From assembly GCF_057098645.1 (NCBI RefSeq), contig NZ_CM169472.1: a DNA stretch of 64,000 nt. One strand, written 5' to 3'. Made by a program: the position numbers and the translations under genes. Under the pieces are notes generated by a model, which saw nothing but the letters and a program-made list of their open reading frames with translations, did no database searches and was not told where the DNA came from. Positions 15,113-55,176 of this stretch are shown here, one piece after another (position 1 is the stretch's first letter; every line of letters starts with the position of its first letter).

Positions 15113-18100
15113 ATGAAGTTTTTACCCTATATTTTTCTTCTCTGTTGTGGTCTTTGGTCGACCATAAGTTTCGCAGACGAAGATTACATCGAATATCGTG
15201 GCATCAGTAGTAACAACCGTGTCACACTTGATCCACTACGTCTGAGCAACAAGGAATTACGTTGGTTAGCGAGCAAAAAAAATCTTGTGATTGCAGTACA
15301 CAAGTCTCAAACGGCTACGTTGTTGCATACCGATTCGCAGCAACGGGTTCGTGGTATTAATGCTGATTATTTAAATCTTTTAAAAAGAGCGTTAAATATC
15401 AAATTAACACTCCGGGAATACGCCGATCATCAAAAAGCAATGGACGCGCTGGAAGAAGGTGAAGTCGATATAGTGTTATCACATTTAGTTGCTTCGCCGC
15501 CTCTTAATGATGACATTGCTGCAACCAAACCACTGATAATTACCTTTCCGGCGCTGGTCACCACCCTTCACGATTCAATGCGACCGCTTACCTCATCAAA
15601 ACCAGTAAATATTGCTCGAGTAGCAAATTATCCCCCTGACGAGGTAATTCATCAATCATTTCCAAAAGCAACAATTATCTCTTTTACAAATTTATATCAG
15701 GCATTAGCATCCGTCTCAGCCGGACAGAATGATTACTTTATTGGTAGTAACATCATTACCAGCAGTATGATTTCCCGCTATTTCACTCACTCCTTAAATG
15801 TAGTGAAATATTATAACTCACCGCGTCAATATAACTTCTTCTTAACCAGAAAAGAATCTGTCATTCTTAATGAAGTACTCAATCGATTTGTTGATGCTTT
15901 AACAAATGAAGTTCGCTATGAAGTATCACAAAATTGGCTTGATACAGGAAACCTGGCCTTTCTGAACAAGCCATTAGAACTCACTGAACATGAAAAACAG
16001 TGGATTAAGCAGCATCCCGATTTAAAGGTGCTGGAAAATCCTTACTCCCCTCCCTATTCTATGACGGATGAAAATGGCTCGGTTCGGGGCGTTATGGGGG
16101 ATATTCTTAATATTATTACTTTGCAAACAGGTTTAAATTTTTCTCCGATCACCGTTTCACACAATATCCATGCTGGAACACAGCTGAATCCCGGCGGATG
16201 GGATATATTACCCGGTGCTATTTATAGTGAAGATAGAGAAAATAATGTTTTATTTGCTGAAGCCTTCATAACAACGCCTTACGTTTTTGTCATGCAAAAA
16301 GCGCCTGACAGTGAACAAACATTAAAAAAAGGAATGAAAGTTGCCATTCCATATTATTATGAGCTGCATTCGCAATTAAAAGAGATGTATCCGGAGGTAG
16401 AGTGGATAAAAGTCGATAACGCCAGCGCTGCATTTCACAAGGTCAAGGAAGGTGAACTTGATGCTCTGGTCGCGACACAGCTAAATTCGCGTTACATGAT
16501 CGACCATTACTATCCTAATGAACTTTATCATTTTCTTATTCCCGGCGTTCAGAATGCATCACTTTCGTTCGCTTTTCCTCGCGGAGAACCGGAACTTAAG
16601 GATATTATTAATAAAGCACTGAATGCAATTCCCCCAAGCGAAGTTCTGCGCCTGACGGAAAAATGGATTAAAATGCCCAATGTGACCATTGACACATGGG
16701 ACCTCTATAGCGAGCAATTTTATATTGTTACGACATTATCCATTTTATTAGTTGGCAGTAGCCTTTTATGGGGATTCTACCTGTTACGCTCAGTTCGTCG
16801 TCGTAAAGTCATTCAGGGTGATTTAGAAAACCAAATATCATTCCGGAAAGCGCTCTCGGACTCCTTACCGAATCCAACTTATGTTGTAAACTGGCAAGGT
16901 AATGTCATTAGTCACAATAGTGCATTTGAACATTATTTCACTGCTGATTACTACAAAAATGCAATGTTGCCATTAGAAAACAGTGAATCACCCTTTAAAG
17001 ATGTTTTTTCTAATACGCATGAAGTCACAGCAGAGACGAAAGAAAACCGAACAATATACACACAGGTATTTGAAATTGATAATGGCATCGAGAAAAGATG
17101 CATTAATCACTGGCATACATTATGTAATCTGCCAGCCAGCGAACATGCTGTTTATATTTGTGGTTGGCAAGATATTACCGAGACGCGTGATTTAATTCAT
17201 GCACTCGAAGTAGAGAGAAATAAAGCGATCAATGCAACTGTCGCAAAAAGTCAGTTTCTGGCAACAATGAGTCACGAAATAAGAACACCAATAAGCTCCA
17301 TTATGGGCTTCCTGGAACTTCTGTCGGGTTCTGGTCTTAGCAAGGAACAACGGGTGGAGGCGATTTCACTTGCCTACGCCACCGGACAATCACTCCTCGG
17401 CTTAATTGGTGAAATCCTTGATGTCGACAAAATTGAATCGGGTAACTATCAACTTCAACCACAATGGGTCGATATTCCTACTTTAGTCCAGAACACTTGT
17501 CACTCTTTCGGTGCGATTGCTGCAAGCAAATCGATCGCATTAAGTTGCAGCAGTACGTTTCCTGAACATTACCTGGTTAAGATCGACCCTCAGGCGTTTA
17601 AGCAGGTCTTATCAAATTTACTGAGTAATGCTCTCAAATTTACCACCGAGGGGGCAGTAAAAATTACGACCTCCATGGTTCACATTGATGACAACCACGC
17701 TGTAATCAAAATGACGATTATGGATTCTGGAAGTGGATTATCACAGGAAGAACAACAACAACTGTTTAAACGTTATAGCCAAACAAGTGCAGGTCGCCAG
17801 CAAACAGGTTCTGGTTTAGGCTTAATGATCTGCAAAGAATTAATTAAAAACATGCAGGGCGATTTGTCATTAGAAAGTCATCCAGGCATAGGAACAACAT
17901 TTACGATCACAATCCCGGTAGAAATTATCCAACAAGTGGCGACTGTCGAGGCAAAAGCAGAACAACCCATCACACTACCTGAAAAGTTGAGCATATTGAT
18001 CGCGGATGATCATCCGACCAACAGGCTATTACTCAAACGCCAGCTAAATCTATTAGGATATGATGTTGATGAAGCCACTGATGGTGTGCAAGCGCTACAC

Positions 18101-49968: not shown

Positions 49969-51177
49969 TCAGGCTGTCGCCTGAATCATTTCGGTGGGTT
50001 CCTGCTTCAACGAGTGGCCTGACTGCACCATCTCTCCACAGGCAAGAACGGCGTGCCCCGCCGCTAAAATGTTACGAGCGCCGTTTACATCGGCGCTCGC
50101 TGTATATCCACATACCTGGCATCTGAATTTACTTTGTGACAGGCGATTTTCTTTCGCTGTATGACCACAGCACGCGCAACGCTGGCTTGTGTACGCTGGC
50201 GGAACAGCAAGCACCTGACCGCCTCGCCAGAGCTGCTTGTACTCAAGCTGGCGGCGCATTTCATACCAGCCCTGATCCAGTATCGAACGGTTTAAACCTG
50301 ATTTTGCCCGGACATTGCGCCCCGGCTGGCTGACCGTACCCGCTGCTGACTTTGACATGTTGCTGACCTTCAAATCCTCAATGACTATCATTGCGTGGTT
50401 TTTGCTGACGGTCGTTGTGACTTTGTGAAGGTAGTCTCTGCGGATATTTGCGGTACAGGAATGCAGTCGCTGTATTTTGCGTTTCTGCTTCTGCCAGTTA
50501 TTGCTGAATTTGACCTTGCGGCTTAACTGTCGCTGAAGTCTCGCCAGCGTCTTCTGGTTTTTCTGAAAACTGTTTACAGGCTCAAAGACTGTGCCATCTG
50601 ACAGCGTGGCGAGTTTAGCCACGCCAGCATCCAGTCCGACCATTGATGCTGAAGGGTGAACCGGAGTTGATACTTCACTTTCTGTCTGAATACTGATGTA
50701 CCACTTACCGCAGGACTGGCTGACAGTGACATTTTTCACAACACCCGTGACCTGACGGCTGTTCCGGTAGCGCATCCAGCCAAGTTTCGGCAGAAAAATA
50801 CGGCTGTTTTCCTGATCGAGCTTAACGCCCTGCTGGTAGCGGAATGCATCATTCTGTCCCCGCTTTTTGAATCGGGGAAAAGCAGCCCGCTTCTGGAAGA
50901 AGTTTTTGTAAGCCCGCTCAAGGTCTTTCAGTGACTGTTGCAATGGCTGTGAGGGCGAATCTTTAAGCCATTGCGTTTCAGTGGCGTTTTTCCACTCAAC
51001 CAGCCAGGAAGCCATTTTCCCGTAAGGGATGTGTTTATTACCGGCCTCATGATTCTCATTCTGACGTGCCAGAGCACGATTGAAAACGAAACGACATGCA
51101 CCTGCGAAGCGCCTCATTTCACGCTCCTGTTGACCACCGGGTCTTAACTGGAATTTAAATGCCTGTAGTCGTTTCAC
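49969..51177 (-). CDS. tnpB: TnpB (IS605 OrfB family; RuvC-like RNA-guided nuclease fold), 402 aa, apparently intact
   Basis: RuvC motifs ([23 protein letters not shown]) and zinc finger CACCGH...CQVCG. Confidence 0.85.
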
Positions 51178-51726: not shown

Positions 51727-53142
51727 TTACTGCTGGTTTTCACGTTCCGCAATAAAAGACAGCGCTTTGTTGATACGCTCGATACTGCGGGTCTTACCGA
51801 TTGCGTGAACGGTAACATCCAGTGCTGGAGACTGCCCCGCACCGGTTACGGCGACACGCAGCGGCATACCAACTTTACCCATACCCACTTCCAGCTCATC
51901 CGCCGTCGCCTGAATAGCGTGATGAACGTTTTCAGCGGTCCAGTCAGTAATCGCGGCCAGTTTGTCACGAACCACTTCCAGCGGCTGACGCGCTACCGGA
52001 CGCAGATGTTTTTTCGCCGCATCGGCATCGAACTCAGCAAAATCTTCGTAGAAATAACGGCAGCTCTGTGCCATCTCTTTCAGCGTCTTGCAGCGTTCGC
52101 CCAGCAGTTTCACCAGATCAGCCAGCTGCGGGCCGTTACGGGTATCGATATTTTCCTGCTCAATGTGCCACTGTAAGTGAGTAGCAACATACTCCGGCGG
52201 CAGCGCGTTAATGTAGTGATGGTTCAGCCACAGCAGCTTGTCGGTGTTGAACGCACTGGCAGATTTGCTGACGGCATTCAAAGTGAAGTATTTGATCATC
52301 TCTTCACGAGTGAAGATTTCCTGATCGCCGTGGGACCAGCCCAGACGCACCAGATAGTTCAGCAGTGCTTCTGGCAAATAACCGTCATCACGATACTGCA
52401 TTACGCTGACTGCCCCGTGACGTTTGGACAGTTTTTTGCCGTCATCGCCGTTGATCATAGAAACGTGCGCGTAAACCGGTACCGGCGCTTTCAGGGCTTT
52501 AAGAATGTTGATCTGGCGTGGCGTGTTGTTGATATGGTCTTCGCCACGGATAACGTGGGTGATTTCCATATCCCAGTCATCGACAACCACACAGAAGTTA
52601 TAGGTTGGGGAACCATCGGTACGGCGGATAATAAGATCGTCCAGTTCCTGGTTGCTGAACTCGATCGGACCACGGATCTGATCGTCAAAAACAACAGAAC
52701 CTTCCTGCGGGTTAGCAAAACGTACGACACACGGCTCATCATCAGCGTGATGCTCATGACTGTGGCGGCAGCGACCGTCATAACGCGGCTTCTCACCTTT
52801 CGCCATTTGCTCTTCACGCAGCGCTTCCAGGCGCTCTTTAGAGCAATAGCATTTATAAGCTGTGCCCTCTTCCAGCATCTGATCGATCACCGCGTTGTAG
52901 CGATCAAAACGTTTGGTCTGGAAGTACGGACCTTCATCCCACTCCAGGCTCAGCCAGTTCATGCCATCCATAATGGCTTCGATAGCTTCCGGCGTGGAAC
53001 GCTCAAGATCGGTGTCTTCAATACGCAGCACGAACTCACCGCCGTGATTACGTGCAAAAAGCCAGGAGTAAAGAGCAGTACGCGCGCCGCCAACGTGCAG
53101 ATAGCCTGTTGGGCTTGGCGCGAAGCGAGTTTTGATTTTCAT
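51727..53142 (-). CDS. gltX: glutamyl-tRNA synthetase, 471 aa
   Basis: [27 protein letters not shown]... HIGH motif, KLSKR motif. Confidence 0.95.
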
Positions 53143-53355
53143 GAAATGGCCTTACGTTTAGAAAGATGCCGACAACCGGCAAATCCTGGAAAAATTGAGT
53201 GGGCGATATTCTATCACTCCCGCCTGATTCCTCAATGTAGTTCGGGTTGCAACCTTACGCATTATTGTTTTCGTTGAGAAATTGCGCAACACGGTCTGTT
53301 TTGCGATCATCTTGCTTAAATTTACGACGAACGAACAATTTCTTTAGAAAATGCG

Positions 53356-53384
53356 TTGACTCATTTTGAACTCTCCCTATAATG
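53356..53384 (+). promoter_or_regulatory. sigma70-type promoter of the valU-valX-valY-lysV tRNA operon (TTGACT-N16-TATAAT)
   Basis: Consensus -35 and -10 hexamers about 16 nt upstream of first tRNA. Confidence 0.6.
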
Positions 53385-53400
53385 CGACTCCACACAGCGG

Positions 53401-53476
53401 GGGGGATTAGCTCAGCTGGGAGAGCACCTCCCTTACAAGGAGGGGGTCGGCGGTTCGATCCCGTCATCACCCACCA
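53401..53476 (+). tRNA. valU: tRNA-Val (UAC), copy 1, with G at position 4
   Basis: 76-nt tRNA; differs from copies 2 and 3 only at position 4 (GGGGGATTAG vs GGGTGATTAG). Confidence 0.85.
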
Positions 53477-53520
53477 ACTACTTTATGTAGTCTCCGCCGT
53501 GTAGCAAGAAATTGAGAAGT

Positions 53521-53596
53521 GGGTGATTAGCTCAGCTGGGAGAGCACCTCCCTTACAAGGAGGGGGTCGGCGGTTCGATCCCGTCATCACCCACCA
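53521..53596 (+). tRNA. valX: tRNA-Val (UAC), copy 2
   Basis: GGGTGATTAGCTCAGCTGGGAGAGCACCTCCCTTACAAGGAGGGGGTCGGCGGTTCGATCCCGTCATCACCCACCA. Confidence 0.93.
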
Positions 53597-53642
53597 CTTT
53601 CTCGCCAGCTAAATTTCTTGTAAAAATGTGAAGTACCGAAGT

Positions 53643-53718
53643 GGGTGATTAGCTCAGCTGGGAGAGCACCTCCCTTACAAGGAGGGGGTCGGCGGTTCGA
53701 TCCCGTCATCACCCACCA
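53643..53718 (+). tRNA. valY: tRNA-Val (UAC), copy 3
   Basis: Identical to copy 2. Confidence 0.93.
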
Positions 53719-53722
53719 CTTC

Positions 53723-53798
53723 GGGTCGTTAGCTCAGTTGGTAGAGCAGTTGACTTTTAATCAATTGGTCGCAGGTTCGAATCCTGCACGACCCACCA
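53723..53798 (+). tRNA. lysV: tRNA-Lys (UUU)
   Basis: GGGTCGTTAGCTCAGTTGGTAGAGCAGTTGACTTTTAATCAATTGGTCGCAGGTTCGAATCCTGCACGACCCACCA. Confidence 0.93.
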
Positions 53799-53802
53799 AT
53801 GT

Positions 53803-53829
53803 AAAAAGGCGCCCTAAAGGCGCTTTTTT
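53803..53829 (+). terminator. rho-independent terminator of the tRNA operon (GGCGCC-ctaaa-GGCGC + T6)
   Basis: Hairpin and T-run directly after lysV. Confidence 0.75.
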
Positions 53830-53862
53830 GCTATCTGCGATTTGTAAGATTGATTTTTCTTC

Positions 53863-53889
53863 TCAAGTTCCTTGTTCTTCTGCCGATAT
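53863..53889 (+). promoter_or_regulatory. putative sigma28 (FliA) promoter: TCAAGTTC-N11-GCCGATAT
   Basis: Matches TAAAGTTT-N11-GCCGATAA at 13 of 16 positions with exact 11-nt spacer, about 29 nt upstream of ORF 53918. Confidence 0.5.
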
Positions 53890-53917
53890 TACCTCGTACA
53901 GTGACGAGGACTGAACA

Positions 53918-54259
53918 ATGGCCACTATCTCTTCAACTTCAATTCCTTCCATACAAACACAGAGTAGTAACAGGGCATCACAAGGTAGCGATGTTGCTTC
54001 ACAAATCGCGCGGATAAGTCAGCAAATCATCAAACTCACTCAACAAATTAAAGAGATTGTAGACACTAGCGGCAGTGCTGAAGACAAACAAAAACAGGCC
54101 GAATTGATTCAACAGCAAATCACCCTACTGGAAACACAACTGGCGCAGTTGCAGAGACAGCAGGCAGAAAAGGCGCAGGAGAAAGAGCAGCGTTTGTCTC
54201 TGAATATATCCCTTCTAAATCCTGTTGAAAATACGACTCATATCGATATCTATATCTGA
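53918..54259 (+). CDS. small Q-rich coiled-coil protein, FlxA-like (113 aa)
   Basis: Ser/Thr-rich N-terminus then Q/K/E coiled-coil ([11 protein letters not shown]...[27 protein letters not shown]); GAGGA RBS; occupies the position of xapR-xapB-xapA-yfeN in K-12. Confidence 0.6.
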
Positions 54260-55176
54260 TACAACGGATCCCCTTCCCGACCAGCCATTAGCGCATTGCC
54301 CTGGTCTCGTACCACGTCCCATAACGCTTCAGCGGCGGTGGAAAGTGAACGGTTCTTCCTGCGCACCAGCATCAACTGCCGTTCAACAACCGGCGTAATG
54401 CGCTTTACCACCAGTGGGCTACCTTCAGGCAATGGTAGCGCCAGTGCGGGAAGAATACTGATGCCGATGCCTGCGGCTACCATCGGGAACAGCGTCGCCG
54501 GATGTCCAATCTCCTGCACAATATTCGCCTGAATACCATTGCGCGCCAGCGCTGCGTCAATCAGCGGTCGGCTGCCTGACGCGTAATCCTGCAACACCAA
54601 TTTCGCTCCCTGTAATGCCTGCCAGGGTACATAATCTTCCACGGCCAAAGCGCTATCGCGATGGCAAAGCAGAAAGAAAGGCTCGGAAAGAATCGCTTCA
54701 CATTGCAGATCGCCCACTGGGCCTGGATCGATGACGATGCCAAAGTCGACATCTCCCTGGCGAATACTTTCCATCACCCACTGCTGCGGACGATCGTGCA
54801 GGACAAACTGAATATCTGGATAGCGGCGATGGCTTTCAGCAATGCATTGCGGAATAAGATGCGCGGAAATGGTCTGGCTGGCAGCGACCCGAACTTTTCC
54901 GCTCAGTTGTTGCCCCATACGCCCGGTATCGCGCAACGTGCTGTTAAGTTCATCCAGCAGTCGCTCAAGACGCAAAGCCAACTGCTGCCCTGCATCTGTA
55001 AGCACCACTTCACGCGTGGTTCTGTCCAGCAGGCGAACACCAGTATGATTTTCCAGCTCCTTCACACTGTGACTTACTGCCGACTGGCTCAGGCCGATAC
55101 GCTCTCCTGCACGACTAAAACTTTTCTCCTGCGCTACTGTGACGAAAACCTTTAATTGTTTTAAAGAATAATTCAT
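54250..55176 (-). CDS. yfeR: YfeR LysR-family transcriptional regulator, 308 aa
   Basis: LysR HTH N-terminus; divergent from yfeH. Confidence 0.9.

Follow-up and report, generated by a model that had tools for sequence, protein, structure and literature searches.

A FlxA-like gene with a candidate sigma-28 promoter at the lysV–yfeR site of the Escherichia coli chromosome

FlxA of Escherichia coli K-12 takes its name from its FliA-dependent expression; since the 1990s, it has been a FliA-dependent gene without a known function and has been treated as a K-12 prophage oddity. It is encoded in the Qin cryptic prophage (b1566) and is the type member of the Pfam family PF14282. Here, we describe a relative of this gene at a chromosomal site, in a 64,000-nucleotide (nt) stretch of contig NZ_CM169472.1 (NCBI RefSeq assembly GCF_057098645.1; the whole stretch is hereafter called the window, and position 1 is its first letter). 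An original prediction, made from the letters of the window, had pointed to a single open reading frame (ORF) of 113 amino acids (aa) between the tRNA-Lys gene lysV and the regulator gene yfeR. Such an ORF is present at positions 53918–54259 of the plus strand; it starts with ATG and is preceded, 8 nt upstream, by the Shine–Dalgarno sequence GAGG (53906–53909, +). We consider, with a probability of roughly 0.85, that this window gene is a chromosomal, syntenically conserved member of PF14282 with its own sigma-28 promoter, and hence a predicted class 3 flagellar gene.

Three described systems invite comparison. K-12 FlxA (110 aa) and the window protein (113 aa) are alike in layout, and both end in IDIY[IV]; both genes stand alone behind a sigma-28 promoter motif that ends 22–27 nt before the start codon. 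However, K-12 FlxA is prophage-borne, whereas the window gene occupies a conserved core-chromosome site beside lysV and yfeR; orthologues of it occur across genera, and its alleles are more deeply diverged than those of Qin flxA. The two genes also differ in the type of −35 element, which is TCAAG in the window gene and TAAAG in K-12 flxA. The window protein resembles the anti-sigma factor FlgM and other late (filament-type) flagellar substrates in its small size, predicted class 3 sigma-28 promoter, disordered, Ser/Thr-rich, and charge-poor N-terminus, and conserved C-terminal region that possibly binds a partner, but no sequence homology to FlgM or the axial proteins was detected in a Pfam scan of the window protein. 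Lastly, the xapABR–yfeN cassette of K-12 fills the same interval, from the lysV terminator to the yfeR stop codon, with unrelated content (a xanthosine phosphorylase, a transporter, a regulator, and a Tsx-like porin) that has no flagellar link.

The window gene had not gone unrecognised, because it is annotated as a 'FlxA-like family protein' in RefSeq (PGAP) and named flxA (ECs_3279) in Sakai, and the FlxA family and its link to FliA were also already known. What is new here is the footprint of the promoter across genera, the finding that the gene is syntenically conserved, a description of the motifs shared by the family, and a testable hypothesis of export. The present value of the analysis lies mainly in the correct annotation of an already annotated gene.

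The FlxA-like protein and its family

The FlxA-like identity that had been proposed for the ORF was borne out by profile and pairwise comparisons. The protein matched the Pfam FlxA model (PF14282) with an i-Evalue of 1.4e-13 and a score of 51.2 bits across model positions 4–82 of 101, and a BLASTP alignment with K-12 FlxA gave 43% identity over the 74 aa of the helical core (E = 2e-12). The protein also matched PHROG 11044 (E = 5.6e-8), which K-12 FlxA itself matches at 1.8e-71. No NCBIfam family reached its cut-off for the window protein, and the phage collection contained no match to it; K-12 FlxA matches a single phage record in that collection. The exact sequence of the window protein was not present in a collection of 15 billion proteins, and a word-index homology search retrieved only eight proteins. 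A profile search of the hmmsearch type against 1.84 billion representative proteins yielded 191 clusters at E ≤ 0.001, indicating that the FlxA family is small.

The architecture of the family was drawn from 65 members recovered by hmmsearch. These proteins are about 100–125 residues long, and their central part is Gln-rich and helical. At the N-terminus (residues 2–22), Ser accounts for 28% of the residues, Thr for 13%, Ala for 12%, and Gly for 11%; charged residues make up only 6%, and the lack of a hydrophobic core means that this region is not a Sec signal. The extreme C-terminus carries the motif [IVL][DN][IVT]Y[IVA], in which I, V, or L at position −5 and D or N at position −4 were found in all members (65/65 for each) and Y at position −2 in 57 of the 65, with I, V, or T at −3 and I, V, or A at −1. 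The last residues are HIDIYI in the window protein and TIDIYV in K-12 FlxA. With its IDIYI end, and with the Ser/Thr-rich N-terminus and Gln-rich helices that had also been noticed in the original prediction, the window protein conforms to the family architecture.

An AlphaFold2 model, computed from an alignment of 65 sequences, predicted a helical hairpin formed by helices at residues 24–49 and 54–96. The predicted local distance difference test (pLDDT) score was 85–90 in this core, with a mean of 68.6 for the whole model; residues 1–21 (pLDDT <50) and the tail at residues 98–113 were modelled as disordered. At the nucleotide level, most substitutions relative to the orthologues occurred at the third codon position (12, 11, and 31 at the first, second, and third positions, respectively, against P. 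faecalis, and 35, 24, and 67 against K. georgiana), and the ORF was intact in diverged E. coli alleles. The excess at third positions indicates that this is a real coding gene, though a quickly evolving one, and the pattern of substitutions argues that the protein sequence is under purifying selection.

The putative sigma-28 promoter

Upstream of the ORF lie a candidate sigma-28 (FliA) −35 element, TCAAGTTC (53863–53870, +), which agrees with the consensus TAAAGTTT at six of eight bases, and a candidate −10 element, GCCGATAT (53882–53889, +), which agrees with the consensus GCCGATAA at seven of eight bases and ends 28 nt from the ATG. The spacer between TCAAGTTC and GCCGATAT is 11 nt. This arrangement had been put forward as a near-consensus FliA promoter with exact spacing, and both scoring and comparison supported that view. 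When a position weight matrix was built from 49 FliA sites identified by chromatin immunoprecipitation sequencing (ChIP-seq; Fitzgerald 2014, PMC4183435, Table 2), the motif at 53863–53889 scored 18.3 bits, which was the top value in the 64-kb window, both strands included, and lay above the median of the 49 matrix sites (16.8). Shuffled whole windows attained 18.3 bits in 2.5–5% of cases, with no position relative to an ORF being required of these matches. The string TCAAG-N14-GCCGATA occurred once in the window and 0 times in 100 shuffles. A −35 element of the TCAA type, beginning with TCAAG or TCAAC, is also present in the validated K-12 promoters of flgKL (TCAAGTCC...TGCCGATAAT) and modA (TCAACTTC...TGCCGATATT) (PMC4183435, Table 2).

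The comparison across genera is stronger evidence for the promoter than these window statistics. We considered approximately 18 orthologous loci from Pseudocitrobacter, six Kluyvera species, Pluralibacter, Enterobacter hormaechei, Scandinavium goeteborgense, and other Enterobacteriaceae, and in nearly all of them, the motif (TCAAG...-N11-GCCGATA) was located 27–30 nt before the ATG. In an alignment of the upstream regions of 14 sequences from five genera, TGCCGATA was invariant and its T nearly so, TCAAG was present in nearly all sequences, and the AGG of the ribosome-binding site and the ATG were invariant or nearly so. Elsewhere in this alignment, the spacers and flanks had diverged, and the mean column identity was 56%. 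Within E. coli, the promoters were identical among three alleles with ORFs that differed by up to about 4%. Furthermore, in three loci with distant members of the family (L033, L030, and L031), the top sigma-28 score of the 7–10 kb locus was located directly upstream of the FlxA gene. The genomic contexts of L030 and L031 are unrelated to lysV–yfeR, and L033 has the order gltX–tRNA–FlxA–ypeB–ligA, without yfeR. The presence of the motif upstream of both the orthologues and the distant members suggests that linkage to a sigma-28 promoter is characteristic of the family.

A hairpin in the 5′ region, CCTCGT-acagtg-ACGAGG (53892–53909), which would hide the Shine–Dalgarno sequence, was considered as a regulator and rejected, because the expected sigma-28 start site (approximately 7–9 nt after 53889) falls within its left arm and because it is kept only in the near-identical Pseudocitrobacter sequences and not in Kluyvera, Pluralibacter, or Enterobacter. 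Elsewhere in the window, the third-best match to the sigma-28 matrix was TCAACTTCAACCACAATGGGTCGATATT at 17449–17476 (+). This sequence is one base off the K-12 evgS site, a weak intragenic FliA site detected with ChIP-seq (FAT score 2; PMC4183435, Table 2), suggesting that the intragenic site is conserved in the window strain.

Expected expression and possible roles of the product

With a sigma-28 promoter of its own, the gene is expected to be transcribed as a late (class 3) member of the flagellar regulon. In the scenario we propose, the export of FlgM would free FliA, which would then transcribe the stand-alone FlxA-like gene from a start site approximately 7–9 nt after 53889, giving a leader of roughly 20 nt; a change of GCCGATAT to GCCGCGAT would abolish this expression. 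In the product, a disordered N-terminus rich in Ser and Thr would be followed by an antiparallel coiled coil of two helices, and the conserved motif would form the extreme C-terminus. We infer FliA-dependent expression of the window gene by analogy with K-12 flxA, for which FliA binding is established and expression was 280 normalised units, against 2 in the ΔfliA strain (PMC4183435, Table 2). A possible sign of co-expression with flagellar genes comes from O157 strain EDL933, in which Z3672 ('Unknown') was down 4-fold in an rpoS mutant in the exponential phase, alongside motAB and yhjH (PMC2907692, Table 1). Z3672 falls between gltX (Z3665) and ligA (Z3677), an interval in which the only ORF of unknown function is the FlxA-like gene, and is therefore probably this gene. 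Given the fixed chromosomal site and the sigma-28 promoters predicted also in unrelated members, the FlxA family would count as a conserved component of the flagellar regulon and not as an accident of phage carriage.

It is tempting, although still tentative, to suppose that the flagellar type III apparatus exports the window protein itself as one of its late substrates, the N-terminus serving as export signal and the C-terminal motif offering a site for a partner or chaperone. It is likewise conceivable, but not something on which we would insist, that the FlxA family as a whole is exported and released with FlgM and the filament proteins, and that the lysV–yfeR member is the ancestral form, from which a lambdoid phage (Qin) took up its copy. 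The idea of export is based on the make-up of the disordered N-terminus, the class 3 timing expected from the promoter, the conservation of the C-terminal motif, the presence of K-12 FlxA in an exoproteome, and the discordance of its protein and mRNA at 42°C. Residues 1–21, with their pLDDT of <50, abundant Ser and Thr, and few charges, would allow an export signal without being diagnostic of it. In late substrates, the C-terminal regions bind chaperones, as in the pairs FliC–FliS, FlgK/FlgL–FlgN, and FliD–FliT. K-12 FlxA was detected in a culture exoproteome, where it rose alongside FlgK, FliD, FliC, FlgL, FlgM, and FlgE (PMC6391000, Table 1). At 42°C, at which the export apparatus was destabilised and FlgM was retained, the FlxA protein and its mRNA shifted in opposite directions (PMC6551532). 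The export of FlxA is not addressed in PMC6391000 or in PMC6551532. Were the export hypothesis correct, a very well-studied machine would gain a further secreted product.

Several points weigh against these readings. K-12 flxA is said, by Ide and Kutsukake in 1997 and in the Pfam description, to be dispensable for motility, and by analogy, the window gene is probably also dispensable for motility in the laboratory. Moreover, 75% of E. coli, motile strains included, are without the FlxA-like gene, which again marks it as dispensable. The searchable literature contained no paper that mentions 'FlxA-like' or ECs3279 and none on this chromosomal copy or on the polymorphism of the lysV–yfeR cassettes; a search for the neighbouring Z-numbers returned nothing direct. 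The exoproteome that contained FlxA also contained cytoplasmic proteins such as CheY and AceE, so lysis could account for its presence (PMC6391000), and the available part of the 42°C report does not state which of the two, FlxA protein or mRNA, had risen (PMC6551532). In terms of structure, a Foldseek search of the PDB returned nothing below E = 0.26, with the FliJ-type protein CdsO at the top, and a profile search of PDB sequences returned only designed coiled coils, PspA, and similar proteins. Because the fold is generic and these matches are non-specific, they lend no support to a specific molecular role.

Alternatively, the protein may stay in the cytoplasm and act as a coiled-coil adaptor or chaperone-like protein that binds the export gate, the ATPase complex, or a late substrate, in the manner of the helical-hairpin proteins FliJ/CdsO, FlgN, or FliT; we see this as possible rather than probable. 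The predicted antiparallel hairpin of two helices (approximately 70 residues), the class 3 timing inferred from the promoter, and a length of approximately 110 aa, which is the size of flagellar chaperones, would all suit such a role, as would the identity of the best fold match, because CdsO is a stalk protein bound to CdsV, the homologue of FlhA. However, that match is not significant (E = 0.26), and LSD1, prefoldin, and designed proteins matched equally well. Even with matches admitted up to E ≤ 10, the Pfam scan showed no similarity to the FliJ, FlgN, or FliT families, and the conserved, disordered, Ser/Thr-rich N-terminus is unlike those chaperones. The detection of K-12 FlxA outside cells (PMC6391000) also argues against a purely cytoplasmic protein.

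The lysV–yfeR site and its two cassettes

The left anchor of the variable site is lysV, a tRNA-Lys(UUU) gene (53723–53798, +; ARAGORN, and 79 bits for the Rfam tRNA model), which is the final gene of the valU–valX–valY–lysV operon (53401–53798). The valU/X/Y tRNAs lie at 53401–53718 (ARAGORN), and the upstream neighbour of the operon is gltX (51727–53142, −). An Rfam scan of 53100–54500 recovered the four tRNAs and no other match. The operon is followed by a terminator hairpin, GCGCC-CTAAA-GGCGC (about 53803–53829), which was recognised in the sequence and, on the minus strand, by a terminator scan, has A/T runs on both sides, and is common to the window and K-12. Such a two-sided hairpin could end transcription from both directions, and it is predicted to insulate the FlxA-like ORF, which begins approximately 90 base pairs (bp) past it, from read-through of the tRNA operon. 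The right anchor is yfeR (54250–55176, −), which is intact and encodes a LysR-type regulator of 308 aa, with yfeH next; the yfeR gene of Sakai is annotated as a pseudogene (ECs_3280; locus L004, 20445–21371). Comparison with K-12 delimited an allele-specific segment of approximately 404 bp (about 53845–54248, +), which is not found in K-12. Its left junction lies directly after the common terminator and gctatctgcgatttg, and its right-hand border is one base outside the stop codon of yfeR; the sequence from tctatatctga onward is identical in K-12. In MG1655, the interval contains xapR, xapB, xapA, and yfeN over approximately 4.4 kb, which is the gene order that the original prediction had given; it had also correctly placed the 3′ end of the ORF 10 nt inside yfeR.

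The FlxA-like ORF and yfeR are convergent and have these last 10 nt in common. No intrinsic terminator was found between them (53803–54259, both strands), and the lysV hairpin lies approximately 430 nt past the yfeR stop codon, so the yfeR transcript may be antisense to the entire FlxA-like gene, and the converse may also hold. This layout raises the question of whether the transcript matters rather than the protein, with sigma-28 transcription into yfeR lowering yfeR expression and altering that of yfeH by interference or antisense pairing. The overlap occurs in at least six genera, no intrinsic terminator was predicted 3′ of the ORF on the plus strand, and the only hairpin placed to halt read-through from yfeR is the two-sided terminator of lysV, upstream of the ORF. 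Nevertheless, we think this explanation improbable, given the signs of purifying selection on the protein and the motifs shared across the family. In addition, the gene and its promoter are retained in L033 without yfeR, and sigma-28 promoters also precede the L030, L031, and Qin copies, none of which has yfeR in its surroundings. An antisense effect would in any case be compatible with a role of the protein and could be a side effect of it.

To compare the occupants of the site, as proposed with the original prediction, we surveyed 5,426 complete E. coli genomes. The FlxA-like segment was located at lysV–yfeR in 1,307 of the 5,426 genomes (388 at ≥99% identity and 926 at 95–99%), including those of O157:H7, O145:H28, O121:H19, and E. 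coli W, which offer a better experimental model than K-12 because they carry the chromosomal copy. The xap–yfeN block occupied the site in 4,066 of the 5,426 genomes (75%) and formed two deep haplotypes, at ≥99% and about 93%. The two cassettes were mutually exclusive at lysV–yfeR in E. coli, constituting a clean polymorphism at one tRNA-adjacent site between a gene of the predicted flagellar regulon and xanthosine utilisation. The Qin-type flxA of the prophage was found in 1,169 of the 5,426 genomes, and nearly all copies were ≥99% identical. With the K-12 xap–yfeN block as the query (locus L002, 3540–7930), 2,434 genomes matched at ≥99% and 1,642 at 90–95%. The haplotype at about 93% occurs in B2 strains, among them ST131 and Nissle. 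The flanking core genes are approximately 99% identical; a divergence of the xap block far beyond that of these core genes hints at separate imports. An apparent third allele in MLI104K2 (H70; locus L005, NZ_CP116925.1, 3257–4468), with a degraded xapB and FlxA-like fragments, was rejected as an intermediate because it contains long homopolymer runs and looks like an artefact of a mixed or low-quality long-read consensus.

Across the genera surveyed outside E. coli, the order gltX–tRNAs–FlxA-like–yfeR (with the 10-nt overlap)–yfeH–ypeB–ligA was found in Pseudocitrobacter, Kluyvera, Pluralibacter, Enterobacter, and Scandinavium, and the 10-nt overlap itself recurs in Pseudocitrobacter, locus L007, Enterobacter, and Scandinavium. 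Citrobacter freundii has xapA–xapB–xapR at the site, with neither yfeN nor FlxA. Because the FlxA-like gene is the widespread syntenic state across the Enterobacteriaceae, the xap cassette is probably a later, secondary replacement of it. The original prediction had the xap block replaced by the FlxA-like ORF; the two are indeed different occupants of one site, but the direction of the replacement was probably the reverse. The lysV–yfeR gene looks like the old chromosomal original of the prophage-borne flxA of K-12. In a comparison of window positions 53840–55176 with loci L008 and L009, the nucleotide identity between E. coli and Pseudocitrobacter was 92.7% in the FlxA-like segment and 87.4% in yfeR, against about 80% in yfeH and 82% in ligA; E. 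coli yfeR is approximately 75% identical to the yfeR genes of Citrobacter, Kluyvera, and Enterobacter. This gradient suggests an old recombinational exchange between genera, centred on the site.

That the segment is the recently acquired foreign cargo of a mobile island beside the tRNA-Lys gene can be largely dismissed as very improbable: its position next to a tRNA, its variability among strains, its low GC content (42.7%, against approximately 53% in the flanking genes), and its unusual closeness, with yfeR, to Pseudocitrobacter would fit such an origin, but the 404 bp contain only the 113-aa ORF and no integrase or mobility gene, the lysV 3′ end is single-copy in the window (≤3 mismatches) and so forms no att-like direct repeat, which together argue against a classical tRNA-linked island, and furthermore, many genera have it at the same position and in the same orientation, the E. 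coli alleles have diverged by up to 3.6%, implying long residence, the low GC content follows from a composition rich in Gln, Lys, Ile, and Ser, and the segment was not found in the phage collection.

In other genomes, the lysV 3′ end and terminator are duplicated, with an RtT-like spacer of approximately 110 nt between the copies; this was seen in K-12 (locus L002, 3363–3535) and Pseudocitrobacter (locus L006, 5760–5905), and it is absent from the window at 53799–53860. In Pseudocitrobacter, the duplication lies upstream of the FlxA-like gene, and in K-12, the same duplication accompanies xap, indicating that the repeat is independent of the type of cassette. One E. coli record (H27) annotates an 'RtT sRNA' (small RNA) in the region of this repeat. 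An O157/O145-like lineage is suggested as the source of the window by the ORF described next; the closest matches to window positions 53700–54400 were O145:H28 genomes, at 99.9% identity. On the other side of gltX, between it and yfeD, the window contains a 402-aa ORF (49969–51177, −) at a site that is empty in K-12 and that, in O145:H28 and O157:H7 Sakai, is the position of a TnpB/InsQ gene of the IS200/IS605 family (IS609).

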